Source: Patescibacteria group bacterium
Lineage (GTDB): Bacteria; Patescibacteriota; Patescibacteriia; UBA10025; JAHIVO01
NCBI GenBank assembly: GCA_018816445.1
Contig: JAHIVO010000061.1
Span: 305-64,304, forward strand
Reading direction: 5' to 3'
DNA: 64,000 bases
Each line of letters opens with the position of its first letter. Positions within the stretch are counted from its first letter, which is position 1. The notes under the pieces are model-generated. The model was not told where the DNA came from, made no database searches, and was given only the letters and a program-made list of their open reading frames with translations. The translations under genes were made by a program, and so were the position numbers. Shown here in pieces: positions 7,262 to 51,529 of this stretch.

Positions 7262-7439
7262 CACCAGTCCCACTTGTTAATTGACAAGAATTAGGCTAGA
7301 GTATAAGAAAACAAGTGGGGCTAATTCTAGCCATTTAATTAAAATATCAAAATACAAAATTTAAATGGCAATTAATAATTTAGTTTTTAATTTTTTCAAT
7401 GTTATTTTCAATTTTTATAATTAAATTTTCATTTTTATT

Positions 7440-9640: not shown

Positions 9641-10414
9641 ATGAAAATAAAAGAACTCACAAGTTCTGATAATGAGAAAATAAAGTCTTTGCGAAAATTG
9701 AACCAAAAGAAGTATCGGCTGGAGTCAAGACGTTTTTTTATTGAAAATGCGAAAATAATTAATGATGCTTTATCTTCTGGTACAGTTTTTGAATCATTAT
9801 TTATTACGGAGAATTTTGCAGAAAAAAATAAGGCCTGGCTGGACAAGATATTAAGCCAGGCAAAAACCACACAGTACTATTTAATAACGGACAGCATTAA
9901 TGCAACTTTTTCCAACCTTGATACTCCGCCTGGTATTGGGGCAGTTTATAAAAAAATTGAAAGGCCGATTAAATACAATTCGCATATAGTTTATCTGAAT
10001 GGCATTAATGATCCAGGTAACCTGGGTACAATTTTACGTTCAGCCCTTGCCTTTGGAATAAAAAATATTGTGCTGGACGAAGCGTGTGCGGATGTTTACA
10101 ATTTTAAAACTTTGCAGGCGGCCAAGGATTCAATTTTCAAATTAAACATTTCTTTTGATAAAAATTATCTGGAATTAAAGAAAATTAAATCAGCCATGAA
10201 AGTATATTCAACTAAAATGGATAATGCCGTATCAATGAAAAGCATGAAGCAGGATGATAAGTTCTGTTTGGTGCTAGGCAGTGAGGCGCATGGAGTGAGC
10301 CAGGCCATTCAGGATTTATCGGATGGTTTTGTTAAAATAGATATTAGACAAGACATGGAGTCATTAAACGTGGCCAGCGCTGCGGCCATTTTTTTCTATG
10401 AAATGTCCCAATAG
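9641..10414 (+). CDS. SpoU/TrmH-family RNA 2'-O-methyltransferase
   Basis: YLNGINDPGNLGTILRSALAFGI and LVLGSEAHGVS motifs. ATG at 9641 chosen to avoid overlap with the upstream gene. Confidence 0.7.
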   Translation: MKIKELTSSDNEKIKSLRKLNQKKYRLESRRFFIENAKIINDALSSGTVFESLFITENFAEKNKAWLDKILSQAKTTQYYLITDSINATFSNLDTPPGIGAVYKKIERPIKYNSHIVYLNGINDPGNLGTILRSALAFGIKNIVLDEACADVYNFKTLQAAKDSIFKLNISFDKNYLELKKIKSAMKVYSTKMDNAVSMKSMKQDDKFCLVLGSEAHGVSQAIQDLSDGFVKIDIRQDMESLNVASAAAIFFYEMSQ

Positions 10415-10540
10415 GCTTGACTGATTGTTTAAACTAGTATATACTTTATAAGCTATGAAATATTTATACGCTGAATTGAATAATAATTCAAATAACCGAC
10501 TCCTGCCGGCGTAATTTTGTTTATTTCAATAGCGTTAATT

Positions 10541-10568
10541 GCCGGCACCAAAAGAGCCGGTATTTTTT
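10541..10568 (+). terminator. Rho-independent terminator (CCGGC...GCCGG + T-run)
   Basis: Hairpin followed by TATTTTTTAT. Three self-complementary GCCGGC copies allow alternative pairings. Confidence 0.4.
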
Positions 10569-10672
10569 ATTCCTCCTTCGCCCTTCAGGCCACGGAGGAC
10601 TAGTAGTCTGGGGTAGTTCAATTGGTACCCCGTAAAGGATACGGGGCAGGCAACGCCGCAAGTCTATTAAAT

Positions 10673-10879
10673 TCTAGGGTAGTTTCCGCCAAAGGCGGAT
10701 CCGCCTATGGCGGACAATTGGCCCCGCCACAATGTTCTGGGATAGTTTAATTGGTAAAACCCTGCACTGTTAATGCAGTGATCCTGGTCCGAGTCCAGGT
10801 CCCAGAGTTTTGTGGCGGGGTAAAATAGAACGCTCCGCTGTTAACGGAGAGGTTGGAGGTCCAAGTCCTCCCCCTAGAG
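10673..10879 (+). tRNA. Outer tRNA-Asn (GTT)-like gene interrupted in the D-arm by ~135 nt that contain the complete inner tRNA-Asn
   Basis: Acceptor TCTAGGG (10673-10679) pairs with CCCTAGA (10872-10878). Anticodon stem CTCCG/CGGAG with loop CTGTTAA, T-arm GGAGG-TCCAAGT-CCTCC. D-stem GTTT (10682-85)/GAAC (10828-31). Insert clamped by CCCCGCCACA (10722-31)/TGTGGCGGGG (10811-20). Confidence 0.35.
10736..10807 (+). tRNA. tRNA-Asn (GTT), inner gene of a nested pair
   Basis: Cloverleaf by hand: acceptor TCTGGGA/TCCCAGA, D-stem GTTT/AAAC, anticodon stem CTGCA/TGCAG with loop CTGTTAA, T-arm CCTGG-TCCGAGT-CCAGG. 72 nt, no encoded CCA. T-loop has C at position 55, which is unusual. Confidence 0.65.
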
Positions 10880-11134
10880 TTCAGCGGGTAGATAAGTTAA
10901 CGGTAGTTTAGGTTCGCCCAATCATCCGATTGGGCGCCCCGTCGTATGACGGGGCAAGCCCTCCCCCTAGAGTTCGTCAGGTAGTTAAATTGTATAATAT
11001 TTTGGTTCGCCGTGAACCACTAAAGGGTTCACGGCGCCATGTACCCTTGAGTGGTACATGGCGATCCCAGCCCCCAGAGTTTAGCAGGCTTGTCCCGTAG
11101 GAGCGTCAGCGACTTACGGGATTCGAATCCTGCT

Positions 11135-11446
11135 CCCCGAGCCAATTGCCGAAAGTGACAACTTCTGTGGATAAGTCATAAAAGCCTTTAAATATCGGGT
11201 GAAAGTTGTACCCACTAGTTTTCTGTTTCGCAACTAAAATCTCCCCACCCAAGTAGGATTCGAATTTCTCATTCTTTTTAGCCTAAAATTCTTCCTTGTC
11301 CATCAGCAGTTTGAAGAGGTTTATAAGGTTTTCAGCCATGAGCCAGGCTTCGTCATCCGATATTTCTTCCCCATATTGCTTTTTGTAGATTTCCTTGAAT
11401 TTATCTATGTGATGTTGTTCAAGAGGCATTGATATCACCCCCTCAC
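11135..11446. repeat. Direct repeat copy 1 (~312 bp, ~90% identical to 15443-15756), encodes a 48-aa ORF
   Basis: Hand alignment of the two copies. They bracket the DGR-containing modules. Confidence 0.8.
11283..11429 (-). CDS. Conserved 48-aa protein (MPLEQHHIDKFKEIYKKQYGEEISDDEAWLMAENLINLFKLLMDKEEF)
   Basis: Strong RBS GAGGGGGTGATATCA before the ATG. The two copies differ at 12 nt but only 1 aa, which indicates purifying selection. Below the 60-aa track cutoff. Confidence 0.6.
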   Translation of the reverse strand: MPLEQHHIDKFKEIYKKQYGEEISDDEAWLMAENLINLFKLLMDKEEF

Positions 11447-11529
11447 TTATGCATGATTAATTGTTACTTCCAGCAATTGACAATATCCCGTCAGCTGTCA
11501 GAATTAAGGTATAATTACATAAAATTTTA

Positions 11530-11925
11530 GTGATCAAAATGAGCAAAAAGAACGTCGTCACATTGATTATTATACTTATATTTGGGCTAACTTGGGGTAT
11601 GAGTAGTATTTTTTATATCAACGGTTTTTGTGAAGACACGCATTTAAAAACCAACGAGACATTTACAGAGACACCCACTGATATTAGTCGTCCATGTGCG
11701 TATACAATGCCAGGGTCAATCTTGGCGTTTCCTGCCTGGCTGACTGCGCGATTTATTACGCCTGACGGCATTATTGTCTATAACGGTCCAAATAACGATA
11801 CTGACAATCCCGTTTTATATATCCTCTCCGGGTTAATTGGTATGCTCGTTGCAGGGATTGTGTGGCTGATATTATACGCACTGTTACTTCGTAAGACGCC
11901 GAAAGCGCAATCAAATGCGACGTAG
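11530..11925 (+). CDS. Hypothetical membrane protein
   Basis: 131-aa ORF with N- and C-terminal hydrophobic helices. Confidence 0.4.
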   Translation: MIKMSKKNVVTLIIILIFGLTWGMSSIFYINGFCEDTHLKTNETFTETPTDISRPCAYTMPGSILAFPAWLTARFITPDGIIVYNGPNNDTDNPVLYILSGLIGMLVAGIVWLILYALLLRKTPKAQSNAT

Positions 11926-12370
11926 CATTAATAGTAAAATTATGGAAAACCAACAACCTCAGCGGCCAACACTCAAGTCGGAAATACCTAAGAAGTGGTT
12001 TTATAGATATTTTGGATTAATTTTTATTTTGTTTGGATTTATTTATTACTTAATACTTCCATTTATTTTTGTTTTACTTGACCCCTCACCTGATAGGTAT
12101 CATTGCCCGTCGGAATTTACTGAATTTTCAGAATATATTTATACACCTCCAATTTCGTTGATTATTTTAATTATTCTTTTTATCGTCACTTTAATAATTA
12201 CCATACTGAGATATTTACCAAAATATAAAAATAACTCCGATATAATTTTTATTTATAAAAGAATTAATTTTATTGTATTTATTCTGTTTGTCATTTTTTA
12301 TTTTATAGCAATGCTTATTGTAGTCCCAATGGAATTTTTACCTGCAGAGGGGTGGGTTTCTCCTTGTTAA
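11915..12370 (+). CDS. Hypothetical polytopic membrane protein
   Basis: 151-aa ORF, very hydrophobic, overlaps the upstream ORF by 11 nt. Confidence 0.4.
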   Translation: MRRSINSKIMENQQPQRPTLKSEIPKKWFYRYFGLIFILFGFIYYLILPFIFVLLDPSPDRYHCPSEFTEFSEYIYTPPISLIILIILFIVTLIITILRYLPKYKNNSDIIFIYKRINFIVFILFVIFYFIAMLIVVPMEFLPAEGWVSPC

Positions 12371-12451
12371 TATAAATAACCAAAAATACATCTCATTAAA
12401 TTGGGGGATGTCCTTTCTTCGTTGTACAACTTATTTTTAATTAAGTTGTTA

Positions 12452-12494
12452 CTTCCCGCAAATAGGTTCTAACGTCCTCTACGACCCCGAGCCA
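12452..12494. repeat. Module-boundary motif copy M1 (CTTCCCGCAAA-GGTTCTAACGTCCTCTACGACCCCGAGCCA)
   Basis: Same ~45-nt motif also at 15410-15451, 17093-17138 and 28241-28310. A variant is at 11101-11146. Confidence 0.6.
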
Positions 12495-12610
12495 TCATTT
12501 CACTCCCATAAACATTGACCTTTCTGACATAGGCAAGTAGGACACTCGAACCTTCACTAGAAAAGCCAGTAAATACAGGGATATAAATTATCATCTGTGG
12601 ATCACTGATC

Positions 12611-12639
12611 TTGACAGATTGCCGTATCCATGGTAGCAT
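12611..12639 (+). promoter_or_regulatory. Sigma-70-like promoter TTGACA-N17-TAGCAT upstream of the DGR target gene
   Basis: Perfect -35 and a 4/6 -10 with 17-nt spacing, about 190 nt upstream of the target start codon. Confidence 0.4.
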
Positions 12640-12830
12640 CCATTGTTACTTTCCGCACTTTGTAATCCAAGAGCTAAAATCACGTTACCTCTTCATTTAA
12701 GAGCGGCTCCTTGCTGTAATCTCCGGACAGAGATTTCCAGAGAGCTGTTCTTAAATAACCGAAAGGTATCGCCTGGAAACCACAGTGGTTGACAGGCAGA
12801 TGTTTTTCAAAAACCAAGGAGGATGACGCC

Positions 12831-13448
12831 ATGGCAAAGACCATGACCCCATCTATGACTGATGGCCAGATTGACAAGGTTGTCGAAAACATCACAGCAG
12901 GGTTTCGCAAGAGACTTCGCGATCACAGGGATGAACTATCTTCAGACACAGTTCAAACCGTCCTCGGCCAGAAGGATTTTATTTCTGCCCTGTTCGCCGA
13001 GTTTCGCCAGCGCGTGGAAGCGGTCAGCAACATGATCGTTCGTAAGGTCAAGGTGGATCGCACCAGAACCTCGCAAGAGGCGCTGGACGTGACAGGACGT
13101 AAGCAGTATACCGACGACGATGTTGTGAAGTCCATGCCGAACGGCAAGGGCGATGAAACCGAGGTTATTTTCTTCAAGGTAGGTCGTACAATAAGTGACG
13201 ACGATCTGGAGAAAGAATATGAACTGCGCGGCCTGGTACCGGCTGATCCGTATTCACTCTGTGCCGTAAATGGAAATGATCCGGCGTTTGCCGATGAACA
13301 TCCCAATGGCACCCACTGGAAAGATTCCAACGGAAAATGGTGTTTCGCCTCCTTCGGCCGGTGGATCGACGAGCGCGGGGTGAGCGTCGACCGCGACGGT
13401 CGTGACTGGGCTGACTGCTGTTGGTTTGCCGGTGTCCGCAAGAATTAG
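12831..13448 (+). CDS. DGR target (variable) protein; C-terminal ligand-binding-type domain carries the VR
   Basis: AGGAGG RBS 8 nt before ATG 12831. C-terminus ...FGRWIDERGVSVDRDGRDWADCCWFAGVRKN is encoded by the VR. Confidence 0.75.
   Translation: MAKTMTPSMTDGQIDKVVENITAGFRKRLRDHRDELSSDTVQTVLGQKDFISALFAEFRQRVEAVSNMIVRKVKVDRTRTSQEALDVTGRKQYTDDDVVKSMPNGKGDETEVIFFKVGRTISDDDLEKEYELRGLVPADPYSLCAVNGNDPAFADEHPNGTHWKDSNGKWCFASFGRWIDERGVSVDRDGRDWADCCWFAGVRKN
13340..13441 (+). repeat. DGR variable repeat (VR)
   Basis: 102-nt homolog of TR 13778-13879. The 20 differences are all at TR adenines; every other position is identical. Confidence 0.85.
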
Positions 13449-13498
13449 GCACTTGGTCGCTTGAACGCATGGCACTTGATTGGTGCCCTTGGATACTA

Positions 13499-13528
13499 CA
13501 CTCTGCATGAGCTTGCTCATGCAGAGTG
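13499..13528 (+). terminator. Perfect 13-bp hairpin (CACTCTGCATGAG-CTTG-CTCATGCAGAGTG) + T-run, 58 nt downstream of VR
   Basis: Read directly. Candidate target-gene terminator and/or the DGR VR-flanking hairpin used in homing. Confidence 0.55.
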
Positions 13529-13777
13529 ATTTTTATCTGACAACGTGATATAATTTTATTTGGAGAGTAAGCGATTCAGCTTGCGGGCACGCCTGCAGGC
13601 GGCTGAAATCCGGATCATTGGGAAAGCCGGAATGCCTGTGGTTATGGCGACAGGCAGCGCGCTCCTTGATTCAATACCAACAAAGATACTTGGTGCAATA
13701 TGCTGGCGGAGCTTTTCTCCCGAATAAAATACAGCCCGGAGAGAATTCAACGGGCAGTGGTACGGAAGGCATGTTGC

Positions 13778-13879
13778 ATAATTCGCCAACTTCAACCGGT
13801 GGAACGACGAGCGCAAGGTGAACGTCAACCGCAACGATAATGACTGGAATGACAACTGTTGGTTTGCCGGTGTCCGCAA
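13778..13879 (+). repeat. DGR template repeat (TR), noncoding, rich in AAC/AAT codons in the VR frame
   Basis: In the VR frame TR reads FNRWNDERKVNVNRNDNDWNDNCWFAGVRN. 20 of its 30 adenines are substituted in VR. Confidence 0.85.
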
Positions 13880-13901
13880 CTATCTTTTTTGGAGCAATCC
13901 G

Positions 13902-14309
13902 CTATTTTGGCGGATTGTTTTTCATCAGTTGTTTTCGCCACCCGCCCAGCATTTTTCCAACCTCTACCAATGGAGGCGTGAGTTGGCTATATTTTCTGGT
14001 ATCCAGAACTTTCATTTCCCAGGCGATCTGCAGGAAAAATTTTAGGGCATCAAGCTTGGTTGAAGCACGCTCCACTACAGAGAGCTTCTTTTCCCTGGGT
14101 GAGTATCCGGCCAGAAGAATTAGTTCCAGAGCATCATAAAACAGCAGGTCAATCTTAGACCCGAGCGTAAAGCGGGACAGCCGCGGCAGGTTCGTCAAAT
14201 TCGCGTGCCATAACCTATACCCTGCCGCCAGTTTCTGTATAATGGGAATATCGACCGACAAATCCCTGGGGGGGGTAATCTTATTAATATGAAAACGCTT
14301 TTGACTCAT
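13902..14309 (-). CDS. avd: Avd-like accessory variability determinant (four-helix-bundle protein)
   Basis: LLAGYSPREKK (compare NIAEGYGR), FFLQIAWEMKVL and LVEVGKMLGGWRKQL resemble Avd / 23S-rRNA-IVS proteins. On the strand opposite to TR and RT, overlapping the RT start by 21 nt. Confidence 0.6.
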   Translation of the reverse strand: MSQKRFHINKITPPRDLSVDIPIIQKLAAGYRLWHANLTNLPRLSRFTLGSKIDLLFYDALELILLAGYSPREKKLSVVERASTKLDALKFFLQIAWEMKVLDTRKYSQLTPPLVEVGKMLGGWRKQLMKNNPPK

Positions 14310-15284
14310 GGGTTTAAGGATATTGTATCGATAGACAATCTATTGTCAGCCTGGCGTGAGTTTGTCCCGGGCAAAGCCGGGAAAAAGGATGTCAGGGAAT
14401 TTTACCGCCATCTGGCTGATAATATTATATCACTCCACGAGGAGCTTGAAAACGACACTTACCGACATGGCGGGTATATTCACTTCAGGATCTCCGATCC
14501 CAAGCCTAGGGATATTCACAAGGCAACCATCCGGGACAGGCTGGTGCACCATGCCATCTATCGCGTACTCTACCCCTTTTTAAGTGATACATTCATCGCC
14601 GATTCATATTCCTGCCAGTTGGGAAAGGGAACGCATCGGGCTATCAGAAGATTCCGGACTTTCGCCGGTCAGGTAAGCAGAAACAATACCCAAACCTGCT
14701 GGATATTAAAATGCGATATCAGGAAATTCTTTGCCAGCATTGACCATGCTATATTGATGAATATGCTAAGTGAGTATATTACTGACCAAAGAATTAATAC
14801 TTTATTGCGCGAGGTTATCCAGAGTTTCTGCTGGCAACCGGGCAAAGGTTTGCCGCTTGGCAATCTGACATCCCAGTTGTTCGTTAATGTGTATATGAAT
14901 GAGTTTGACCAATTCATGAAACATACATTAAAAGTCAAGTATTATCTGCGTTATGCTGATGATTTTGTTGTAATGTCTGATAACAGATCGTGGTTAAAAG
15001 GACTCATACCGATTATCAGTAATTTTCTGACGGTCAAACTCAAACTCACGCTTCATCCGAGCAAGGTATTTATTAAAACACTGGCTTCAGGAGTTGATTT
15101 TCTGGGCTGGGTGCATTTTCCGTATCATCAGGTACTCCGCACTTCCTCCAAAAGGCGCATGTTAAACAGGATTACTGAAAACCCGGAAACATCTACTATG
15201 CAGTCATATTTGGGTCTACTACAACATGGCAATGCATACAAGCTGGCAGAGCAGGTGATTAATCAGACCTATCTATGGAAGTAA
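14289..15284 (+). CDS. DGR reverse transcriptase
   Basis: RT motifs 1-7, YADDFVV (YxDD). The DGR-specific LGNLTSQLFVNVY ([I/L]GxxxSQ) replaces the retroviral QGxxxSP. N-terminal NLLSAWREF...VHHAIYRVL is typical of DGR RTs. Confidence 0.85.
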   Translation: MKTLLTHGFKDIVSIDNLLSAWREFVPGKAGKKDVREFYRHLADNIISLHEELENDTYRHGGYIHFRISDPKPRDIHKATIRDRLVHHAIYRVLYPFLSDTFIADSYSCQLGKGTHRAIRRFRTFAGQVSRNNTQTCWILKCDIRKFFASIDHAILMNMLSEYITDQRINTLLREVIQSFCWQPGKGLPLGNLTSQLFVNVYMNEFDQFMKHTLKVKYYLRYADDFVVMSDNRSWLKGLIPIISNFLTVKLKLTLHPSKVFIKTLASGVDFLGWVHFPYHQVLRTSSKRRMLNRITENPETSTMQSYLGLLQHGNAYKLAEQVINQTYLWK

Positions 15285-15409
15285 CCTTATCCACATTTAT
15301 TGTTGGAATACGCAATTGCAAACAAAGTGATTGAAGTATACAGTAAGATTGGGGCACGAGAATATTTCTTAATTTATTTAAAACAGTTTTCAGGAGAATT
15401 AAGTTGTCG

Positions 15410-15451
15410 CTTCTCGCAAAAAAGTTCTAACGTCCTCTACGACCCCGAGCC
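15410..15451. repeat. Module-boundary motif copy M2
   Basis: CTTCTCGCAAAAAGTTCTAACGTCCTCTACGACCCCGAGCCA, immediately followed by direct-repeat copy 2. Confidence 0.6.
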
Positions 15452-15756
15452 AATTGCCTAGAACGACAACTTACTGTGGATAAGTCATATTAACCTTTAA
15501 ATATCGGGTGAAAGTTGTACCCAAGAGTTTTCTATTTACGCAATTAAAATCTCCCCACCCAGGTAGGATTCGAATTTCTCTATCTTTTTAGTCTAAAATT
15601 CTTCCTTATCCATCAGCAGTTTGAAAAGATTTATCAAGTTATTGGCCATGAGCCAGGCTTCGTCGTCCGATATTTCTTCTCCATATTGTTTTTTGTAGAT
15701 TTCCTTAAATTTATCTATGTGATGTTGTTCAAGAGGCATTGGTTATCACCCCCTTT
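15443..15756. repeat. Direct repeat copy 2 (~312 bp)
   Basis: Aligned to 11135-11446 by hand. Confidence 0.8.
15593..15739 (-). CDS. Conserved 48-aa protein, copy 2 (differs at one residue, E33N)
   Basis: Same RBS and frame as copy 1. 10 of the 12 nucleotide differences are synonymous. Confidence 0.6.
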   Translation of the reverse strand: MPLEQHHIDKFKEIYKKQYGEEISDDEAWLMANNLINLFKLLMDKEEF

Positions 15757-15823
15757 GTATAAAAAAACAAAAAACTACTGTAGGTATTGCTTACAGTAGC
15801 CAATGTAAAAAGTTTAACTTAGT

Positions 15824-16153
15824 TTAAATATTTTTAAGCTCTTCAAAATTAACCTCTGGAATTTCAGTGTTTAGTTTTCGTTTGCTGTTCTTTTGTTTTT
15901 CAACAATTGCAAACATCTGATTTACTTCAGGAGATATGTTTTGATAGCTCACTTTTTTAAAGTTCCAGAATTTGTTATGCTGGTCTTTAAGTTGTAGTAA
16001 TTCATGCGCGGCCGAGCGAGAAATAAAAGAGATATTTGAGAAATCCAAAACTACACGACGGTCTGTAGTTTCCTGAATCCGCTGTTTTATAATGCTAATT
16101 ACATCCCTCGATGAGAGCATTGGGGATATATCTTTTAATGCAATATTATTCAT
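15824..16153 (-). CDS. STAS-like / DUF4325-type anti-sigma-factor-antagonist-like protein
   Basis: RVVLDFSNISFISRSAAHELL has a STAS/DUF4325-like signature. Lies downstream of the GHKL gene in the same operon. Confidence 0.45.
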   Translation of the reverse strand: MNNIALKDISPMLSSRDVISIIKQRIQETTDRRVVLDFSNISFISRSAAHELLQLKDQHNKFWNFKKVSYQNISPEVNQMFAIVEKQKNSKRKLNTEIPEVNFEELKNI

Positions 16154-16194
16154 ATATAATCATTATATCACAGTTATATTGTGGATATCCAATT

Positions 16195-17076
16195 TTACTC
16201 TGTATAGGGTGTTATGTCAATAGGACCTTTGGGATAAGGTATTTGATAGGAGATAATAACTCCTTGCCAGTAGAAATTTGGGAGCTGTACAATTACTTGT
16301 TTACCTTGTGAACCTAAAAAGACGCTATTACCAGTGAGAAGTAAAAATTGGCCACCTAGTGCTTTCCTAACTACCAACTGTGATGTACTTAATCCGTAAC
16401 CTCTTCCTTCCATTTTTTTGGTTGACTGTCCTTGAAATGCACGTCGAATTGCTTCATCGTCACCAACTTCTTGTTTCTGAACATCAAAGTATCTTCCAGC
16501 AATGCCCCTGCCGGTGTCAATTATACAAATATCTAATAACTTCTTCTTCGGATAATGTTGTGCAAATATCCAACCATAATTCTTTTGGCTATGTTCGAAT
16601 ATGTTGCCGACTAATTCGCTAATAGGGTACAAGATTGCATTGCTTGCACCCGCTACATTACCTGTTAGTTTTTCGATAATTCTATAAAAATTACTTTCCA
16701 GACCTTGTCTACTTGTTTCGTCTGCTTTCTTAAGAAAACCAATTGGAATTGTATAGCTTAATAAGCTCAATTGATTGGCATTCTCTATTCCATTAGGAAA
16801 AGAAATATCTCTTAAATATCTCTTTACTTGTTCTGATTGAGGTTGTTGATAATTGCTCTGATATTCTCTAACGTGGGCACACACAGTAAGTGTTAATAAA
16901 GGGTGCATCCAAGTACAGGACGATAATCGAAAATTAACTGGATTTTGTTTTATCCCTTTAAAAGTATCATATAGAGCTTTGATTTGATCTTTAAGGTCGT
17001 CAGATTTAGGATTGTTGACCCTTACTTCCTTTAGCATTAATATTTTATTATAGATTATTTGTATATAGTATACCAT
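16195..17076 (-). CDS. GHKL-family ATPase (histidine-kinase-like ATP-binding domain) with ~140-aa N-terminal extension
   Basis: N-box ELVGNIFEHS, G1 box IDTGRGI, G2 box GRGYGLS. Confidence 0.55.
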   Translation of the reverse strand: MVYYIQIIYNKILMLKEVRVNNPKSDDLKDQIKALYDTFKGIKQNPVNFRLSSCTWMHPLLTLTVCAHVREYQSNYQQPQSEQVKRYLRDISFPNGIENANQLSLLSYTIPIGFLKKADETSRQGLESNFYRIIEKLTGNVAGASNAILYPISELVGNIFEHSQKNYGWIFAQHYPKKKLLDICIIDTGRGIAGRYFDVQKQEVGDDEAIRRAFQGQSTKKMEGRGYGLSTSQLVVRKALGGQFLLLTGNSVFLGSQGKQVIVQLPNFYWQGVIISYQIPYPKGPIDITPYTE

Positions 17077-17092
17077 CTAGTAATTAATCTTT

Positions 17093-17138
17093 TAAGTTGT
17101 CTCTTCCCGCAAAAAAGTTCTAACGTCCTCTACCACCC
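17093..17138. repeat. Module-boundary motif copy M3 with an inserted GC hairpin CACCCAGAGCTGGGTG
   Basis: CTTCCCGCAAAAAAGTTCTAACGTCCTCTAC + hairpin. The 3' CCCCGAGCC part is missing. Confidence 0.55.
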
Positions 17139-17290
17139 AGAGCTGGGTGCTTATGCGCAGTGAAAGACGAAATATTGTTTCGTCTTCTTTGGATTGATTT
17201 TAATCCCTTTATGAGGGATAATATAGGCGGGATTACTTGGTTATTATTGAAAATCATGCTGAAGCGAAAAATTAAAATAATCAATAATTT

Positions 17291-17866
17291 ATGGCTAAAA
17301 AGATAAAACCTAATTGGGAAGCTTATCCCGTATCTGATAATGCCTTAGATGAAATGAATTTTCTTTTACTTTGCCCGAGATGTTTAAAAAAGACAGACCT
17401 TACTGATTATACCGTGAAAGTAGGAAAGAAAAAAAGAAAGAAAAAAATGACCATGCCTATCTGCCAGCCGTGCAAGAAGGCGGCGGTTCGGAAATTAAGA
17501 AAAGAGATGTTAATAATATTTGCTATTTGGGCTCCGGTGTCCTGGGGTCTTTTTATAGTTTTAGCAAAAACAGGTATTCTGGGAAGAACTATAGAAGCCT
17601 TGGGATTTCCTTGGGGGCTATTTCTTCCGGCGATTTTGCTTGGGATACCCCTGTATGCCCTGTACCTGCTTATTAGTTGCTTTATTCCTCCGAAAAAAGG
17701 AGGTTGGCCAATTGAATTGAAAGAACCATTATGGTCTCTCATGTTTGAAAACGAGACTTATGTCAGAGAGTTTACAAAGGCCAACGTCCAAAGGCTTAAT
17801 AGTGTTACGAATTACAACGTCGAGCCGCCTGAAGAGTTAATGAAAGATGGTCGTCTGCTTATCTAA
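17291..17866 (+). CDS. Hypothetical membrane protein with N-terminal CxxC...CxxC zinc-ribbon-like region
   Basis: LLCPRCLKK...MPICQPCKK followed by three hydrophobic helices. Confidence 0.4.
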   Translation: MAKKIKPNWEAYPVSDNALDEMNFLLLCPRCLKKTDLTDYTVKVGKKKRKKKMTMPICQPCKKAAVRKLRKEMLIIFAIWAPVSWGLFIVLAKTGILGRTIEALGFPWGLFLPAILLGIPLYALYLLISCFIPPKKGGWPIELKEPLWSLMFENETYVREFTKANVQRLNSVTNYNVEPPEELMKDGRLLI

Positions 17867-18022
17867 GCGGTGGTACACTCAAGAGGAAACCAAGAAAATT
17901 TTTTATCACCTGTCGCATAAGACTTTTGGAGGTGGGTCAGTTCGTCTTTCTTGGAGTGTGGGGTGTTGATTTTTAGTATATTTTTTCTTGATTAATGGGC
18001 TAAGTTGCGGGATAATCAAGGT

Positions 18023-18050
18023 GTATGATTATTATTATTATAAATCATGC
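18023..18050. promoter_or_regulatory. Putative NikR operator GTATGA-N16-TCATGC
   Basis: Matches the E. coli NikR site GTATGA-N16-TCATAC at 11 of 12 half-site positions. Lies ~190 bp upstream of nikR. Only a TCATGC half-site is present in the related repeat at 17237-17290. Confidence 0.4.
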
Positions 18051-18242
18051 TGAAACGAAAAACTAAAAAAATTAATAAAGCGGATCCGCCTTTGGTGAAG
18101 ATTTTGGCCCACGGAGTTCGGGGTTTATTATGTTGTTTTGATTTAAGGTGAGAGTCTCAGAGCACCGCGGCCGCGGGGTGAAAATCCCGCCATATGGCGG
18201 GGCGACTCGCGAAGTTAGGATCTGATGTGATATAATTAAATT

Positions 18243-18662
18243 ATGAGTACAATAAAGAGATTTAGCATTTCTCTCGACAACGCCCTCCTGGAAAAATTTA
18301 AGAGGAAGATAATGACCAAAGGCTATGCCAACCGCTCACAGGCCATGGCGGATTTAATTAGGAAATCTTTGGTAAATATAGAATGGGATGCTTCGCAAGG
18401 CGAGGTTATTGGGACAGTTACCCTCGTGTACAACCATCACCGTAAGGATATCGTCAATCAGCTTGTCTCTTTACAGCATCAATTTCACCAAGGCATTCTC
18501 GCCACGACACACATTCACATGGACAAGGAAAATTGTTTGGAGGTTTTAGTGGTTAAGGGTAAGGCGAAAAAGATTCGAGAGGTTTATAATCAGTTGGGGA
18601 GACTTAAAGGAATTAAATTCAGCGATTTATCCACAGCCACCACCGGCAGGCATTTGACTTGA
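18243..18662 (+). CDS. nikR: Nickel-responsive regulator NikR
   Basis: N-terminal ribbon-helix-helix (KRFSISLDNALLEKF) and C-terminal metal-binding domain with H-rich motifs (HHRKD, HIHMD). Confidence 0.75.
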   Translation: MSTIKRFSISLDNALLEKFKRKIMTKGYANRSQAMADLIRKSLVNIEWDASQGEVIGTVTLVYNHHRKDIVNQLVSLQHQFHQGILATTHIHMDKENCLEVLVVKGKAKKIREVYNQLGRLKGIKFSDLSTATTGRHLT

Positions 18663-18740
18663 TCCTTAATTTTTTTTATAATAACAGTGTTACGATATTT
18701 AAATTCGTAATACTTATTAACTATTAAACTATAATAATTT

Positions 18741-19436
18741 ATGCACATTCCAGACGGATTTTTGAATTCCGGCACCTCGGGAAGCCTGATTGTGGCAGCA
18801 GTTGGGTTTTTAAGCTTGGCAGTGAGCCGGGTGAGGCAGGGATTTTTTGAGAAAGTAAGAACGGCAACACTGGCAACGCCAGAGGGCGCTGAATTCGGCA
18901 GCACTACGGTTGCCAAGCTGACCTCATACGGCCGAAATAAAATGTTTCGCATGGCGGTAGTCGGTGCTTTTGTGTTCGCCGCGCAGATGGTAGATTTTCC
19001 GGTGGTGCACGGAACATCCGGTCATCTTTTGGGCGGTGTGCTAGCGGCAATCCTGCTCGGACCCTGGGCAGGCATGTTGGTTATTGCCGCGGTTTTGGCC
19101 GTGCAGTCGCTGATGTTCGCTGACGGCGGCCTGGTGGCTTTGGGCGCTAATATTATTAATATGGGTGTTATTGGCGCTGTTGGCGGTTATTATGCTTATA
19201 GGTTTTTGTTTAAGCGAATTAAAAAAGTTTTGCCAGCGGCTTTTATTGCGGCTTGGCTGTCCGTGGTGGTTGCCGCTTCGGTTTGCGCGGTTGAATTGTC
19301 AGTTTCAGGCACGGAAAACCTGGCGCAGTCTTTTTCAGCCATGGCAGGTATTCACGCCCTGATTGGTTTGGGAGAGGGTCTGATTACCGTTATGGTTTTA
19401 ATCGGATTAAAGCATAAGGAGAAAAACAATGAATAA
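18741..19436 (+). CDS. cbiM: ECF-type cobalt/nickel transporter substrate-capture component CbiM/NikM
   Basis: Begins MHIPDGFL, the canonical CbiM N-terminus. Polytopic. Confidence 0.8.
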   Translation: MHIPDGFLNSGTSGSLIVAAVGFLSLAVSRVRQGFFEKVRTATLATPEGAEFGSTTVAKLTSYGRNKMFRMAVVGAFVFAAQMVDFPVVHGTSGHLLGGVLAAILLGPWAGMLVIAAVLAVQSLMFADGGLVALGANIINMGVIGAVGGYYAYRFLFKRIKKVLPAAFIAAWLSVVVAASVCAVELSVSGTENLAQSFSAMAGIHALIGLGEGLITVMVLIGLKHKEKNNE

Positions 19437-19722
19437 AAAATATATTTATTTAGCCCTTATTGCGTTTTTAATTGGTGGCATTGTTTCCTTGTTTGCTTCT
19501 TCGTCACCAGACGGCCTGGAAAAAGTAGCTGAAGACAAAGGTTTTATTCAAACAGCTCTGGACTATCCTTTTCAAACATTGTTGCCGGATTATACTTTCC
19601 CAGTGAACAATGAATACTTAGCTACTGCCTTGGCTGGTACTATTGGTACAGTCGTGGTTTTTCTGATTATTTTGCTGGCAGGGAAGGTTTTATTTCCCGC
19701 CCGGCCCGGGGCAGGGACATGA
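19429..19722 (+). CDS. PDGLE-domain small membrane protein (CbiN/NikN-like)
   Basis: SSPDGLEKV motif and two TM helices. Overlaps the cbiM stop. Confidence 0.55.
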   Translation: MNKKYIYLALIAFLIGGIVSLFASSSPDGLEKVAEDKGFIQTALDYPFQTLLPDYTFPVNNEYLATALAGTIGTVVVFLIILLAGKVLFPARPGAGT

Positions 19723-19793
19723 AATGCGGGATAGTGTCGTCACCAGAAAATTTTTTTAGTTAAAAACGACGGTAATTTTCCACTCCAGTTATT

Positions 19794-20840
19794 TCAATCA
19801 CCTAATACGTAGGCAAAAATGAGAGGCGCCACGATTGTAGCGTCGCTTTCGATGATGAAGCGCGGGGTTTCCGGTTCCAATTTATTCCAGGTGATTTTTT
19901 CGTTAGGTACGGCGCCGCTGTATGAGCCGTATGAAGTGGTACTGTCGGATATCTGACAGAAGAATTGCCACGGTCGGCATTTTCTCTGCAGGTCAAGGCG
20001 GATCAGCGGCACCACGCAAATGGGGAAATCTCCGGCTATGCCGCCGCCGATTTGGAAAAAGCCGATTCCCGCTCCCGCAGCGTCAGTTTTTTCGTACCAT
20101 TGTACAAGTTCAAGCATGTATTCAATTCCCGATTTGACCGTGTGCGGATTTTTCAATGTTTTTTGCATGATGAGTTCACTGGCGAAACTATTGCCCATAG
20201 TGCTGTCTTCCCAACCTGGTACGAATAGGGGAAGGTTTTTTTTCGCGGCCGCCAATACCCAGGAGTCTCTGGGGTTAATTTCATAGTATTGTTCAAGCTT
20301 TCCCGATAGCAAAATTTCGTAAAAGAATTCGTAAGGAAATTTGCGCTGGCCTGATTTTTCAGCTAAGGACCAGATTTCTACCATTATCTGGTCGATTTTT
20401 GTCATTGCCTCATCTTCGGGAATACAGGTATCCGTGACCCGGCTTAGGCCGCTTTGGCGGAGTTCGTTTTCCTGCTGCGCGGTCAGTTCGCGATAATGAG
20501 GCAGACGTCGGTAGTGATTATGGGCCACGAGATTGAAGATGTCCTCTTCCAGGTTGGCTCCGGTGCAACTGACGGCGTGGATTTTGTCCCGACGGATCAT
20601 TTCTGCCAGCGACACGCCCAGTTCAGCTGTACTCATAGCTCCGGCCAGAGTAGCCATCATTTGGCCGCCTTTTTGCAAGTGTTCGCAATAGGCATGAGCT
20701 GCGTCTTTGACAACTGCCGCGTTAAAATGACGGTAGTTATGGTTGATAAACTGCCGTATTTCCTTATAATTATTTTTATTTTTTGTATTGATTATCTCAT
20801 ATTGGTTATTTGTAGCCATAATTAAAAAACAGTTATTCAA
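19794..20840 (-). CDS. Deoxyhypusine synthase-like protein
   Basis: HAVSCTGANLEEDIF, QIGGGIAGDFPI and SDSTTSYGSYSGA align with DHS family motifs. Confidence 0.7.
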   Translation of the reverse strand: MNNCFLIMATNNQYEIINTKNKNNYKEIRQFINHNYRHFNAAVVKDAAHAYCEHLQKGGQMMATLAGAMSTAELGVSLAEMIRRDKIHAVSCTGANLEEDIFNLVAHNHYRRLPHYRELTAQQENELRQSGLSRVTDTCIPEDEAMTKIDQIMVEIWSLAEKSGQRKFPYEFFYEILLSGKLEQYYEINPRDSWVLAAAKKNLPLFVPGWEDSTMGNSFASELIMQKTLKNPHTVKSGIEYMLELVQWYEKTDAAGAGIGFFQIGGGIAGDFPICVVPLIRLDLQRKCRPWQFFCQISDSTTSYGSYSGAVPNEKITWNKLEPETPRFIIESDATIVAPLIFAYVLGD

Positions 20841-21364
20841 TTTAGTTAGAATGTCTTGTTAAATTAAAAATGGCTAGGCCGCAAACACCAAGTGAATAAA
20901 ATTGATGCTAGTTTTTTTCTGAATGAATATACGAAAAAATACTGCTCAAATTTGTTGAAAGCAAGATGGTTTGACTGCGGCCGTTTAATATAATTTTTAT
21001 AACGCATCTGATTGGAAAAAATATTTATTTTATTATACTACATCTGTTTTATTATACTATAATATTTGGCAATGTAAAGGTTTTTTAAAAATATTTTTTT
21101 AGGCACTTTAAAAGGAATTGAGTTATAAAATTAGAGGCGAAGAATTTCTAAGATTATATTCATTTATCTTATTGAACATTTTAAATGATTAAAAGGGTAG
21201 AGTGATAATTTTGGAGAATATGGCAGAGTTAGTGAAGTTGGTGAAGAGTAGAATAAGGGTAAGATAAGAAATTATTAAACAATTAAGTAAGTATTTAGAA
21301 AAAAGCAATATAGATTTAAAAAATGGTGATTGGTTCCTATACTTGACAAAAGAAGTTGGAGGAA

Positions 21365-21394
21365 TATACTTAATTATGGGTATATATTCATAAT
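21365..21394. promoter_or_regulatory. Conserved upstream element (paralog of 6861-6890); a TTGACA hexamer lies at 21343-21348
   Basis: ATATACTTAATTATGGGTATATATTCATAAT versus TATATTTAATTATGGGTATATATTCATAAT. Confidence 0.45.
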
Positions 21395-21485
21395 TGTTGA
21401 TAACTCATTAATTTAGCTAGTTTTGGGTAAATATTCAATATCAAAAAAGTCGAATTTAATAATTAACCAATAAGGAAATAAATAT

Positions 21486-21806
21486 ATGCCAAGACAAGAT
21501 AGTCAAGGTCCCAGATGGGGCGGCGGTCCAGGCGCTGGTTGGGGCATGGGACCCTGCGGTGCAGGTTGGGGTGGCGGCCCATGTTTCGGTAGAGGTGGAA
21601 GGCGAGGCCGAGGACGCGGCATGGGCTGGGGTTTCATGCCCAGCAGAATGTACGGCGGATATAATTACGGCTACCAACTAAGCAAGGATGACGAGCTGAA
21701 AATGATAGAAGATGAGGAAGCAGCCCTTAAAGGTGAGCTTGAGGCCTTACAGCAGGCCAAGCAGCAATTGCGATCCGAAAAAAATCCGCCAAAAGCGGGC
21801 AAGTAA
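21486..21806 (+). CDS. Glycine-rich DUF5320-like protein with C-terminal coiled coil (paralog of 6995-7261)
   Basis: MPRQDSQGPRWGGGPGAGWGMGPCGAGWGGGPC... followed by ELKMIEDEEAALKGELEALQQAKQQL. Confidence 0.55.
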   Translation: MPRQDSQGPRWGGGPGAGWGMGPCGAGWGGGPCFGRGGRRGRGRGMGWGFMPSRMYGGYNYGYQLSKDDELKMIEDEEAALKGELEALQQAKQQLRSEKNPPKAGK

Positions 21807-21916
21807 GATAGTCCTGTTCCATTAACTCTAAATAATGGGCTAGAGCTTTGAACATTCAACAGGACTATCTTTAGCCCAATTTTTAATCAGTTTATAATAG
21901 TAAATCAAATAAATTT

Positions 21917-22099
21917 ATGACAATAGGAGATCAGGCAGGAGGTGGCCGTGTATTAAGTGGCCGTGGTTTGGGACCGGCCGGTTCAAGTATTTGCGTTTGT
22001 CCGAAGTGTGACTATAAAGAAGCACACAAACGTGGTGTGCCCTGCAATCAGATATCGTGTCCTAAATGTGGAACAAAGATGAGGGGTGAAAATTGCTAG
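21917..22099 (+). CDS. Small Gly-rich N-terminus + 7-Cys zinc-ribbon-like protein
   Basis: GGGRVLSGRGLGPAG followed by CVCPKC...CNQISCPKC...C. Present only in cassette 2. Confidence 0.4.
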   Translation: MTIGDQAGGGRVLSGRGLGPAGSSICVCPKCDYKEAHKRGVPCNQISCPKCGTKMRGENC

Positions 22100-22108
22100 G
22101 GTATACAT

Positions 22109-22384
22109 ATGCCACGACCCCAATTATATCGGAGAATTAAATTTAGCCCACGAGTCACTTATTTTAAGCCGCAGGGTATTCCTTTGCGTGCTCTTGAAGT
22201 TGTAGAGTTAAGTAAAGAAGAAGCTGAAGCCTTGCGTTTGAAGAACGTGACCGGACTTGATCAGCATGAGTGCGCTAAAAAAATGCATACTTCGCAAAGC
22301 ACGTTTCAGCGTATTTTATCGTCAGCCTATCGTAAAATCAGCTATGCCCTGATAAAAGGTAAGGCCATTTCAATAGAGAAATAA
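22109..22384 (+). CDS. DUF134/UPF0251-family predicted DNA-binding protein (paralog of 7440-7715)
   Basis: About 70% identical to the 7440 product by eye. Confidence 0.7.
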   Translation: MPRPQLYRRIKFSPRVTYFKPQGIPLRALEVVELSKEEAEALRLKNVTGLDQHECAKKMHTSQSTFQRILSSAYRKISYALIKGKAISIEK

Positions 22385-22495
22385 AATATCATAAAAAGTA
22401 ATTAATTTTTTATATAAACCGTCTCATCTTCATTGTTGACAATTTTTTATTATGGTGATAATTTTAAAGTTAAGTATACTTAACTTATAATCACT

Positions 22496-22900
22496 ATGGT
22501 TAAACAAAACCAGGAAGATTATTTGCGAGCAATCTATAACTTTTGGGAACACCATGATAGAGTTATTCGTTCCGTGGATATTGCCGGGTATTTGAATATT
22601 TCCAAAGCGTCAGTTTCTCAAATGTTAAAAAAGCTGGCTCAACAGAGGTACGTAAAAATTAAGCCTTATTCATATGTATTATTTACCACTAAAGGTTTAG
22701 CATTGGCCAAAAGATTGATGTACAAACATAGAATTATTGAAGTTTTTTTAAGGGAGATACTGGGTATTAATAAAAAGAATGTTCATGAGGAGGCAAACAG
22801 ACTCGAACACGGTTTTTCTGATGAGACAATCAGGAAATTAGCAAAATTTATAAATAATCCGAAATATTGCCCAGGTGGTAAAAAAATTCCAAAATTATAA
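22496..22900 (+). CDS. DtxR/MntR-family metal-dependent transcriptional repressor
   Basis: EDYLRAIY, ISKASVSQMLKKL HTH and a dimerisation helix. Confidence 0.75.
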   Translation: MVKQNQEDYLRAIYNFWEHHDRVIRSVDIAGYLNISKASVSQMLKKLAQQRYVKIKPYSYVLFTTKGLALAKRLMYKHRIIEVFLREILGINKKNVHEEANRLEHGFSDETIRKLAKFINNPKYCPGGKKIPKL

Positions 22901-22906
22901 AAAATT

Positions 22907-23134
22907 ATGAAACAAGCTTTAATTACTTTTAGGGAGGGCGACAAGGTAAAAATAGAATGTGTGCATTGCGGGAAGAATTTTAGGAAGCGGTTGATTGATT
23001 TAGGTTTGTTTGATGGCGCAGAAATAGAGATTATTAAAAATGATAAATACGGTCCCCTGATTCTTAAAATTTTTAATTCCCAAATTGCCTTGGGTCGAGG
23101 CCAGGCTGCTAAAATATATGGAAATAAAATCTAA
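22907..23134 (+). CDS. feoA: FeoA
   Basis: 75-aa SH3-like protein. [12 protein letters not shown]...[11 protein letters not shown] is a FeoA pattern. Confidence 0.7.
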
Positions 23135-25175
23135 TCTAATTATTGGTTTAGCCGGCAATCCTAATGTTGGTAAATCTACCTTGTTTAACACTTTAACCGG
23201 GGCTCATCAGCATGTCGGTAATTGGCCGGGCAAGACCGTAGAGAAGAAGCACGGGGAATTTACTTATTTAGACAAAAAGATTAAGGTCGTTGATTTACCC
23301 GGTTCCTACAGTCTGACTGCCTATACTGAAGAAGAGACAATCACGGCTGATTTTATTTTAGAAGAAAAACCGGATGTAGTGGTGCAGATAATTGATGCAC
23401 AGAATCTGGAAAGGAATTTGTTTCTGACCATCCAATTGATTGAACTGGGTGCTCCTTTAGTTATTGCTTTAAATATGGTTGATTTGGCAATAAATACTGA
23501 TCAGAAAATAAATATAAAAGCACTGTCTGAACTCTTATGCGTACCGGTTGTTGAAATGGATGCCAGAAGTAAAAAACATCTTGGTAGTTTTATGAAAGCT
23601 GTTTTTGAAAAAGCTTTTTCCGATAAAAAAGCGGATAAAATAAAATTAACGTACGGCACTGATATTAATGATGAGTTGGGAAAAATTAGGCAGTTTTTAC
23701 GAGAAAAAGAAAATAATGTTACTGAAGAGGAAATAAATTGGACAGCAATAAAGTTATTAGAAGGTGATTACCGGGCTGAGCAAAAAGCCAGCAATAAAGC
23801 CCATTATTCGGAACTTAAATTGTTAGTAAAAAGAAGCATTGCGCGTTTGCATAAAATTTGTAATAAGGATATTAATACAATTTTAGCTCGTGCTCGCTAT
23901 GGTTTTATCAAAGGTTTAAGCGAGGATGTTATTGGTCGACATACAATTTCCGGGCATAAAAAGTTGGCAGACAAATTTGATCACATCGTTACAAATAAGT
24001 ATTTAGGTATTCCGTTTTTTGCGATTGTGGCCTGGGTTTTGTTTCAGACGACATTTAAGTTATCAAAACCACTGATGGGCTGGATAGAGTTACTTTTTGA
24101 ATTTCTCGGCGCCAACCTCACTTCTTTAATGGCAACATGGAATGCACCTACCTGGGTAAGCTCATTGTTAGTTGATGGTGTTATTGGCGGAGTGGGCGGT
24201 GTATTGGTATTTGTCCCAATTATTGGTATTTTATTTTTACTAATGGCTTTATTGGAAGATTCCGGATATATGGCGCGAGTGGCTTATGTAATGGATAAAT
24301 TTATGCACCGCATTGGTTTGCATGGCAAAGCTTTCATCCCTCTCATATTGGGTTTTGGATGTAATGTACCTGGCATAATGGCTACACGTACTCTGCCAAC
24401 AAAAAAAGACAGGTTATTGACCATTTTAATTAATCCTTTTATGTCTTGTGGGGCCCGCTTGCCCGTATATATTTTATTTGCCGGTGCTTTTTTCTCTGCA
24501 TATCAGGGCTGGGTAATATTCTCATTATATTTTTTAGGAATTATCGTAGCTATTGTTATGGGATTCCTATTTAAAAAATTCTTATTCAAGAAACTTTCCT
24601 CGCCATTTGTAATTGAATTACCACCATATCGCTGGCCAGCCATTAAGGGTGTATTAATTCACGTTTGGGAGCGGGTTTGGATTTTTATTAAAAAAGCAGG
24701 CACAATAATTTTAGCCTTCTCTATTATAATTTGGTTGTTGGCAAGTGCGCCATTTGGCGTAGATTATGGTTCGCAGGATAGTTTGGCAGGTTCAATCGGC
24801 CAGACAATATCGCCGGTATTCAGGCCGTTGGGTTTTGACAATTGGCAGTCTTCCGTTGCTTTGATGTTCGGTTTTGTAGCAAAAGAAGTCATAGTCAGTA
24901 CCTTTGGCACGCTTTACGGCATTGATGATGTAGAAGATGGCGAGGGAGGCACTTCGTTGAGTAATGCTTTACAGGATAATTTTACGCCTTTGGCTGCATA
25001 CGCGTTTATGATATTTGTTTTATTATATGCTCCATGCTTGGCTGTTTTAGCAGTAGTTAAGCGTGAGACTAATTCTTGGAAATGGCCGTTATTTATGGTT
25101 GGGTATACAACAGCTGTTGCTTGGATTTTTGCCTTTATTGTTTATCAAGGAGGGAATTTATTAAACTTTGGATAG
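23118..25175 (+). CDS. feoB: Ferrous iron transporter FeoB
   Basis: G-domain [17 protein letters not shown]. Gate motifs in the membrane domain. Start taken at ATG 23118. Confidence 0.85.
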
Positions 25176-25176
25176 T

Positions 25177-25323
25177 ATGAATTTATTAGGGATTTTAATT
25201 GTTATATTAATTACCATAGCGTGTTTGGCGTATATTGTTTCTTATATAAAGAAGACATTTAATAAAGTAAATAGTTCGTGCGAGGAGTGTCCCTATTCGG
25301 ACGCTTGCAGTAAGAAGCAATGA
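25177..25323 (+). CDS. FeoB-associated Cys-rich small membrane protein
   Basis: 48 aa: one TM helix plus CEECPYSDAC. Starts 2 nt after the feoB stop. Below the track cutoff. Confidence 0.5.
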   Translation: MNLLGILIVILITIACLAYIVSYIKKTFNKVNSSCEECPYSDACSKKQ

Positions 25324-28219: not shown

Positions 28220-28240
28220 TCACAGACAGTTTATTGTCCC

Positions 28241-51523: not shown

Positions 51524-51529
51524 GCGTCA

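Follow-up and report, generated by a model that had tools for sequence, protein, structure and literature searches.

What do two direct repeats of about 312 bp, placed on either side of a diversity-generating retroelement (DGR), represent in the genome of a Patescibacteria group bacterium? The question is raised by contig JAHIVO010000061.1, of which a stretch of 64,000 nucleotides (the window) was analysed. Each repeat carries on its minus strand a small open reading frame (sORF) for a 48-residue protein. A first, sequence-only reading of the window had taken the repeats to bracket the DGR together with two membrane-protein genes, as in a composite mobile unit. We found that a second repeat, here called D2, and a 10-nt core split the interval differently, and we consider it on balance somewhat likely that three small integrative cassettes stand in tandem at positions 11135-17145, where a tRNA-Asn-type gene has its 3' end.

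Layout of the repeats, the core and the cassettes

D2 is a 56-nt repeat that consists of a 46-nt arm with the core, CCCCGAGCCA, at its end. The core matches at 10 of 10 positions at 11135, 12485 and 15443, and at 7 of 10 in a degenerate form at 17136. D2b, the core and the arm of repeat copy 2 follow one another without a break at 15397-15756; homology to this block begins at 11135 in repeat copy 1 and ends at 12494 in D2a, and the two homologous segments overlap by exactly the 10-nt core. This pattern suggests that D2b-core-arm is an undivided, attP-like attachment (att) site and that copy 1 and D2a are its recombinant halves. Because D2 and the 10-nt core are shared, the interval was read as three head-to-tail cassettes of 1.35 kb (sORF and two membrane-protein genes), 2.96 kb (the DGR) and 1.69 kb (GHKL, STAS and sORF). 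The sORF is the sole gene common to cassettes 1 and 3; the DGR is the middle cassette, has no sORF, and is parted from both sORF modules by D2a and D2b (Table 1).

The 19-nt motif TTGC.GRAAG..ACAACT occurs six times against 0.22 expected, and 6 of the 7 AAGTTGTNNC sites in the 64 kb fall inside the array, where the D2 arm carries the site and the sORF arm carries it twice. As single-stranded DNA, D2b and the start of copy 2 can together fold into an imperfect 14-bp hairpin (15400-15473, z = -3.1). GC skew, positive on both flanks, is flat or negative over 10.9-17.2 kb.

The two copies of the 312-bp repeat are 90.06% identical over 312 alignment columns (11135-11443/6 versus 15443-15754/6), in agreement with the figure of about 90% given earlier for 11135-11446 and 15443-15756. 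Their non-coding remainder (11135-11282 versus 15443-15592) is identical at 133 of 150 columns and contains two 1-nt indels, and it is therefore not coding; it is conserved with divergence, as had been noticed, at 11% and not the ~13% first stated. This part is less diverged than synonymous sites (17/150 versus 9/24, Fisher P = 0.003), indicating that it is under constraint of its own. Two blocks in it had been called perfectly conserved: CCTTTAAATATCGGGTGAAAGTTGTACCCA is indeed exact in both copies (at 11185 and 15494), whereas TTAAAATCTCCCCACCCA, in the form first given, occurs unchanged in copy 2 alone (15544), the first base in copy 1 being C, and is shared over 17 nt only. The first block is a small hairpin with one AAGTTGT heptamer in its loop, and the second is a terminator-like hairpin directly 3' of the sORF. 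The copy 1 arm carries heptamers at 11158-11164 (-) and 11203-11209 (+), and also the hairpin GGGT-N9-ACCC. Comparison of the two arm sequences gave 2 compensatory pairs among 17 differences, which is only suggestive of RNA structure. Rfam searches of the repeats (gathering and E-value thresholds) returned only tRNAs and a chance RAGATH-33 match, and nhmmer with the non-coding arm found zero copies outside this population. A second open reading frame (ORF) in the arm was also considered and rejected, the frames being broken by the indels.

An assembly duplication can be excluded as the origin of the repeats, because the copies are 10% diverged, their flanks differ and three other assemblies agree: a metagenome-assembled genome (MAG) from NCBI (contigs L004 and L041) and, from other runs, the Logan assemblies L042 and L043 match the window at 10400-12184 and 11402-25283 with 99.7-99.9% identity.

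Cassette 2 is a genuine canonical DGR, with a reverse transcriptase (RT), bAvd, and a template repeat (TR) and variable repeat (VR) that differ on TR adenines only (17/17 mismatches). A fourth D2-like copy lies outside the array, in inserted DNA that parts two ZIP genes; in the closest syntenic relative (contig L032) these two genes are direct neighbours. At 28266-28297 this copy contains a perfect 24-nt GC-rich palindrome, CCCAGCCTCTCGCGAGAGGCTGGG, with TCTA duplicated on either side, and a D2 copy on contig L001 (CAZJUO010000034.1, positions 7300-7345) has a different GC hairpin at the equivalent place; small palindromic insertions may be active in this lineage. To the right of the array and upstream of nikR, 47-nt direct repeats (17241-17287 and 18032-18078, 87% identical) flank an ORF for a 191-residue membrane/zinc-ribbon protein, which could be either one more inserted unit or a regulatory region that was duplicated.

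Table 1. Features of the window in and around the array (RBS, ribosome-binding site)
Feature	Positions	Strand	Remarks
tRNA-Asn / tRNA-Asn-like nest	10607-11134	+	decayed tRNA-like 3' end at 11083-11134 (...GGGATTCGAATCCTGCT) forms the left, attB-type flank
Intact tRNA-Asn	10735-10808		330 bp upstream of the first core
Core copy 1	11135-11144	+	CCCCGAGCCA; also the start of repeat copy 1
Repeat copy 1	11135-11446		starts exactly at the core
Non-coding arm ('tail'), copy 1	11145-11282		89% identical to 15453-15592; terminator-like hairpin 3' of the sORF
sORF copy 1	11283-11429	-	48 aa, E33; shared RBS at 11433-11441
Cassette 1 cargo	11530-12370	+	two small membrane-protein genes, 11530-11925 and 11915-12370
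D2a, right end of cassette 1	12439-12494	+	core at 12485-12494
Cassette 2	12495-15396	+	complete DGR
DGR target gene	12789-13448		VR at 13344-13441
DGR TR	13782-13879
bAvd	13902-14309	-	match 8e-12
RT	14289-15284		RVT_1 match 5e-23
D2b, right end of cassette 2	15397-15452	+	core at 15443-15452
Repeat copy 2	15443-15756		starts exactly at the core
Non-coding arm, copy 2	15453-15592		heptamers at 15466-15472 (-) and 15512-15518 (+)
sORF copy 2	15593-15739	-	48 aa, N33
Cassette 3 cargo	15824-17076	-	STAS-like gene 15824-16153, GHKL ATPase gene 16195-17076; upstream of sORF copy 2 on the same strand
D2c, right end of cassette 3	17090-17145	+	degenerate core CCCAGAGCTG; followed by backbone
Fourth D2-like copy	28228-28310	+	split by a 24-nt GC hairpin

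The tRNA-Asn site in the window and in relatives

In its 3' 34 nt, D2 aligns with tRNA-Asn 3' ends from the window and from two related contigs, L033 and L034 (GGTTCGAA... GAGCCA); this alignment shows that the 3' half of D2 is copied from tRNA-Asn, namely from its T-loop, acceptor strand and CCA. L033, which was reached via the neighbouring SpoU methylase, and L034 are colinear, with 80-89% nucleotide identity, and differ at this very point. In L034, the tRNA-Asn gene ends in ...GGGGGAGCCA and is followed directly by GTTATTTTG and an HD-domain gene. In L033, 2.64 kb of extra DNA follows the tRNA-Asn gene, and homology resumes exactly at the boundary between GAGCCA and GTTATTTGG. This extra DNA opens with a decayed tRNA end homologous to window positions 11083-11144 and carries three small genes; a D2-like repeat stands after each of the last two (nhmmer E = 2e-4 and 9e-7). 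L034 and L033 thus present the empty and the occupied site for the same kind of array, in relatives and not at this exact locus. In L032, the genes downstream of SpoU-tRNA-Asn are unrelated, indicating that the site is a variable hot spot.

The L033 array has a further repeat of its own, a 17-nt direct repeat, ATCCGCCTCCGGCTATTG, that flanks a gene for a 386-residue protein (L033 17220-17238, 18450-18468 and 19012-19028) and resembles the window junction CCCCGAGCCAATTGCC. The motif GTGGATAA follows the core in both arrays (window 11168-11175, L033 17243-17250).

In the window, the stretch that precedes the first core (10607-11134) folds with z = -8.4 and includes, in addition to the intact tRNA-Asn, a weak second tRNA match at 10817-10875; pseudo-unit ends homologous to its decayed tRNA-like end occur in L033 and L034. 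The intact gene sits within an 11-bp stem (CCCCGCCACAA, 10722-10732; TTGTGGCGGGG, 10810-10820) that interrupts the D-loop of a second tRNA-Asn-like gene, which has the acceptor strands TCTAGGG (10673-10679) and CCCTAGA (10872-10878), an anticodon arm at 10833-10849 and a T arm at 10855-10871. There is also a third 5' half, TCTGGGGTAGTTCAATTGGTA (10607-10627), which corresponds to the tRNA-Asn of L032 and has its complementary CCCCAGA at 11072-11078. This nest could reflect a 'Russian-doll' disruption and replacement of tRNA genes, or it could be a large structured RNA. Positions 10908-10977 and 11003-11082, together with L032 2866-2939, are tRNA-like 3' parts whose T-loop contains two GC-rich hairpins; the hairpin sequences differ in L032 and the architecture is the same, with compensatory changes in 4 of the 21 predicted pairs. 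A palindromic motif, GCCAAAGGCGGATCCGCCT(A/T)TGGCGGA, was seen near the nest (10685-10714), upstream of nikR (18080-18095) and after a ZIP gene (27817-27845). Elsewhere in the window, two tRNA-Met genes (51524-51600 and 52128-52200) are each followed by a similar (+)-strand sequence of ~60 nt, ...cgccttccgtttccagta(a/g)tggctgaaaact(a/g)caggct..., as judged by eye.

The 48-residue protein and its family

Both repeat copies hold the minus-strand sORF that the first reading had described, and E33N is the sole amino-acid change between them. Its counts were reproduced as well: 12 nucleotides differ, 10 of the changes are silent, and the other two sit in the E/N codon. The Nei-Gojobori method gave pS 0.38, pN 0.025 and dN/dS ~0.05 (binomial P = 1e-5), confirming the purifying selection that had been proposed. 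The strong GAGGGGG ribosome-binding site (RBS) ascribed to each copy is found in copy 1 only, and GGGGGTGAT is what both have. The sORF is the sole ORF conserved between the two repeat copies.

A sORF with 96% identity was found in another MAG (L001/L002) amid unrelated genes, where DNA conservation (92%) is limited to the RBS and the ORF and where D2-type motifs lie upstream. Silent divergence is near-equal among the two window copies and the L001 copy (pS 0.38, 0.375 and 0.46), and nearly all residues are constant across the three; the window sORFs are therefore not a recent local duplication. No further paralogue was found in the window or in L032-L034. L001 is labelled 'uncultured Gammaproteobacteria' in its record and shares near-identical mobile sequences with the Patescibacteria contig, which points to mis-binning or to transfer between an epibiont of the candidate phyla radiation (CPR) and its host.

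The 48-residue protein had no family match in Pfam, NCBIfam, PHROGs, PADLOC or PDB sequence searches. It is acidic (12 D+E versus 6 K+R), too acidic for binding DNA itself. The sORF was also considered as a type I toxin-antitoxin system, a candidate that was rejected because the peptide is acidic and not hydrophobic. Conservation of the ORF outside the contig, a check raised together with the first reading, was found well beyond the L001 copy: an exhaustive HMMER search yielded 159 representatives of the family at E <= 1e-3, and a profile search yielded 235 clusters, mostly of 45-80 residues and mostly from Patescibacteria, none of them with a Pfam or NCBIfam assignment. Their neighbours include type I, IIG, ISP and AlwI restriction-modification genes, KAP NTPase and HEPN/AbiU2 genes, and also DUF3800, UvrD, Schlafen/AlbA, ParB-methylase, resolvase and small HTH_17 proteins. 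From such contexts, the family appears to be a large unannotated set of ~50-residue two-helix proteins of CPR defence/mobile islands. Some homologues are fused to a zinc ribbon and an HTH_17 / Xis-MerR fold; the 48-residue protein aligns solely to the N-terminal two helices (helix-loop-helix) of these long fused homologues, to which the helix-turn-helix (HTH) is confined, and has no winged HTH itself.

Individual homologues vary further. P0027 (136 residues) has the sORF domain twice in tandem, and P0217 (262 residues) combines it with a C-terminal region in which a motif (D...E-S-K) looks nuclease-like by eye and which has no Pfam match. Five contigs classed as viral in IMG/VR (L035-L039) with fused or small homologues carry AlwI and type I restriction genes, methylases, resolvase, ParB-methylase and Schlafen/AlbA, and no structural phage gene was found among the ORFs scanned on them; in gene content they look more like defence or mobile islands than viruses.

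Whether the repeat lies next to DGRs in other genomes had also been put forward as a check. No RVT_1 gene was called within ~5-6 kb of sORF homologues in eight other contexts, and there is therefore no link between the sORF and DGRs; nor was there a recurrent partner gene common to the window cassettes, L001 and the other homologue loci. Of the roles first offered for the protein, a recombination or regulatory factor or a module-associated factor, the latter fits loosely, given the homologues in variable defence/mobile islands, and the tie to DGRs was lost. A role in maintaining or regulating the element is favoured because the sORF is common to cassettes 1 and 3 and adjoins the arm. We tentatively suggest that the protein might be a partner-binding accessory factor or regulator of the element, one that for example modulates an excisionase-type or integrase partner, and not cargo, a role that we regard as possible but doubtful.

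Proposed mechanism, rival explanations and known systems

Under the array reading, conservative site-specific recombination would have placed the cassettes at the 3' end of the tRNA-Asn-type gene, and each insertion would have regenerated the core for the next, giving a head-to-tail stack. The 312-bp repeat would then be the homologous left end of cassettes 1 and 3, comprising the core, a constrained arm of ~140 nt and the sORF gene, and the AAGTTGT heptamers in the arm would be candidate arm-type binding sites. Such a left end would account for both limits of the repeat, which opens with the first base of the core and closes a little upstream of the sORF RBS. The layout of the repeats, the meeting of the homology breakpoints at the core, the tRNA origin of D2, the empty and occupied sites of relatives, and selection on the ORF as well as on the arm are seen directly in the sequences, and we infer the type of the recombinase, its action in trans (or its loss) and the order of insertion.

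Several observations weigh against an array of this kind. The last core, in D2c, is degenerate at three of its ten positions, and cassette 2 shows at its left end no similarity to the sORF-type arm. What precedes the first core departs from a canonical tRNA, and neither ARAGORN nor Rfam called it. Among the genes of the cassettes and the window ORFs scanned, none was recognised as a recombinase, in a scan that did not extend to ~18 kb of the contig or to the remainder of the genome, and no integrase family was present among the 25 most frequent families listed for these ORFs. The L001 sORF stands without arm or core, and tRNAs are nearby in only 1 of the 11 sORF-homologue contexts, so that a recombination role of the sORF is weakly grounded. 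Finally, a scan of GTDB genomes, JGI metagenomes and IMG/VR with the D2 pattern returned only the L001 contig and GC-rich chance matches; D2 is thus known only from this lineage and L001, which makes the sample small.

Of the alternatives, an old segmental duplication survives best, although we regard it as unlikely. A small gene with its 3' untranslated region and terminators would have been duplicated, D2 would be a lineage-specific intergenic repeat, either regulatory or like repetitive extragenic palindromes (REP-like), and no site-specific recombination would have taken place. The conserved blocks do coincide with terminator-like hairpins on both strands, the L001 copy of D2 has a strong terminator hairpin, D2c sits immediately upstream of a sequence that resembles a promoter of the GHKL operon, and no recombinase was recognised in the cassettes and scanned ORFs. 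A duplication, however, leaves unexplained why the breakpoints of copy 1 and D2a fall on the same 10 nt, why D2 copies a tRNA-Asn 3' end, and why the insertion in L033 relative to L034 has its limits exactly at GAGCCA and at D2-like repeats. The window copies also diverge from each other as much as from the L001 copy.

We find it improbable that the cassettes are non-autonomous transposon-like elements with terminal inverted repeats of ~20 bp (ATTGCCGAAAGTGACAACTT ... AAGTTGTTACTTCCCGCAAAT) and a transposase encoded elsewhere. Inverted copies of the 19-20-nt motif flank both cassette 1 (11145 and 12444) and cassette 3 (15453 and 17095), and a weaker copy at 11459 flanks the unit of the first sORF, but cassette 2 has one motif copy only and no target-site duplications lie beside the inverted repeats. 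Moreover, ~25-35 nt of tRNA-derived D2 are outside the right repeat yet within the conserved unit, and the empty and occupied sites of the relatives are bounded by the tRNA 3' end and not by inverted repeats.

An integron-like platform, in which the D2 junctions would be folded attC-type sites and an integron integrase would capture the cassettes, as in clusters of attC sites lacking integron integrases (CALIN), is more improbable still. The attC site of integrons has R''-L''...L'-R' boxes (RYYYAAC...GTTRRRY), folds into a hairpin and is crossed over in R'. As in integron cassettes and CALIN, small recombinase-less units follow one another head to tail, a recombination-site repeat closes each of them and none has an integrase inside, and the D2b/copy 2 junction folds into the imperfect hairpin described above. 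However, only one of the four junctions folds in this way, the order of boxes typical of attC is missing, and the shared core occupies the loop of the hairpin and not the outer R' box. The window cassettes differ also in being multi-gene with genes on both strands and in a site that derives from a tRNA 3' end, and no intI was found among the 25 most frequent families listed for the scanned ORFs.

That the repeats are the arms of a composite mobile unit carrying the DGR, or the 48-residue protein an accessory factor of the DGR, as first read, is hardly credible: the DGR does sit between both copies, but the repeats encode a helical protein and no transposase, no duplication flanks the pair (the flanks, ...GAATCCTGCT and GTATAAAAAA..., are unrelated), D2a and D2b stand between the DGR and the two sORF modules, none of the eight other homologue contexts has an RT called, and the L001 sORF copy has no DGR nearby.

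A broader idea, which we offer as speculation and hold to be rather unlikely, is that the tandem array exemplifies a miniature gene-capture platform at tRNA-Asn 3' ends of CPR bacteria of this lineage. A recombinase acting in trans would insert, stack and exchange recombinase-less cassettes of 1-3 kb, an entire DGR and defence-type modules among them, via a tRNA-derived att site, and the widespread 48-residue type of protein would steer this recombinase either directly or via an excisionase-type partner. If true, the platform would amount to a functional analogue of integrons with another kind of site and another accessory protein. How the small genomes of CPR/Patescibacteria gain and exchange accessory genes is little understood, and the locus offers a concrete picture, in which a tRNA-Asn 3' end would be the landing site for tiny cassettes piled up without an integrase gene. 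A whole DGR as one cassette suggests a route by which DGRs could spread in these lineages. The ~50-residue family travels with restriction-modification and abortive-infection-type genes in CPR islands, and some members are fused to excisionase-type DNA-binding modules; its members are thus candidate regulators or accessory factors of these islands.

How the locus compares with known systems differs from part to part. The DGR resembles those of other CPR bacteria in its RT, bAvd and adenine-only TR/VR mismatches, and differs from them as a whole 3-kb unit between two att-type repeats. The 48-residue protein, acidic and without HTH or zinc ribbon, differs from the excisionase/MerR-type HTH_17 proteins (P2 Cox, Pukovnik Xis, RdfS, AlpA and BldC). 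For the array itself, a report on Dehalococcoides describes genomic islands that lie in tandem at the ssrA 3' end, are mobilised site-specifically and are larger (PMC3146451); integration at the 3' end of a small-RNA gene in a small-genome bacterium is common to both, with adaptive cargo in those islands, whereas the window units are smaller and no integrase was found in the ORFs scanned. Tandem accretion at the 3' ends of tRNA and tmRNA genes is also known to involve cis-mobilizable elements (CIMEs), which keep attL and attR and have lost the integrase (PMC5704250). The array shares with these the boundary repeats from the 3' end of the target RNA gene, the head-to-tail stacking, the lack of an integrase of its own, and the empty and occupied relatives. 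Its units differ in their length of only 1.3-3 kb, in their content of one to four genes and in lacking any trace of decayed genes for integration or transfer, and the array differs further in its CPR host and in a decayed target tRNA-like gene nested with other tRNA-Asn copies. The best-supported view is that the DNA architecture works like tandem accretion at tRNA genes, most of whose sequence-level hallmarks it appears to display. The kind of insertion is thus familiar, and its form is unusually small and without an integrase gene; what is unusual here is the 1.3-3 kb scale without remnants of mobility genes, the CPR host, a complete DGR as one unit, and the small protein that the cassettes share.

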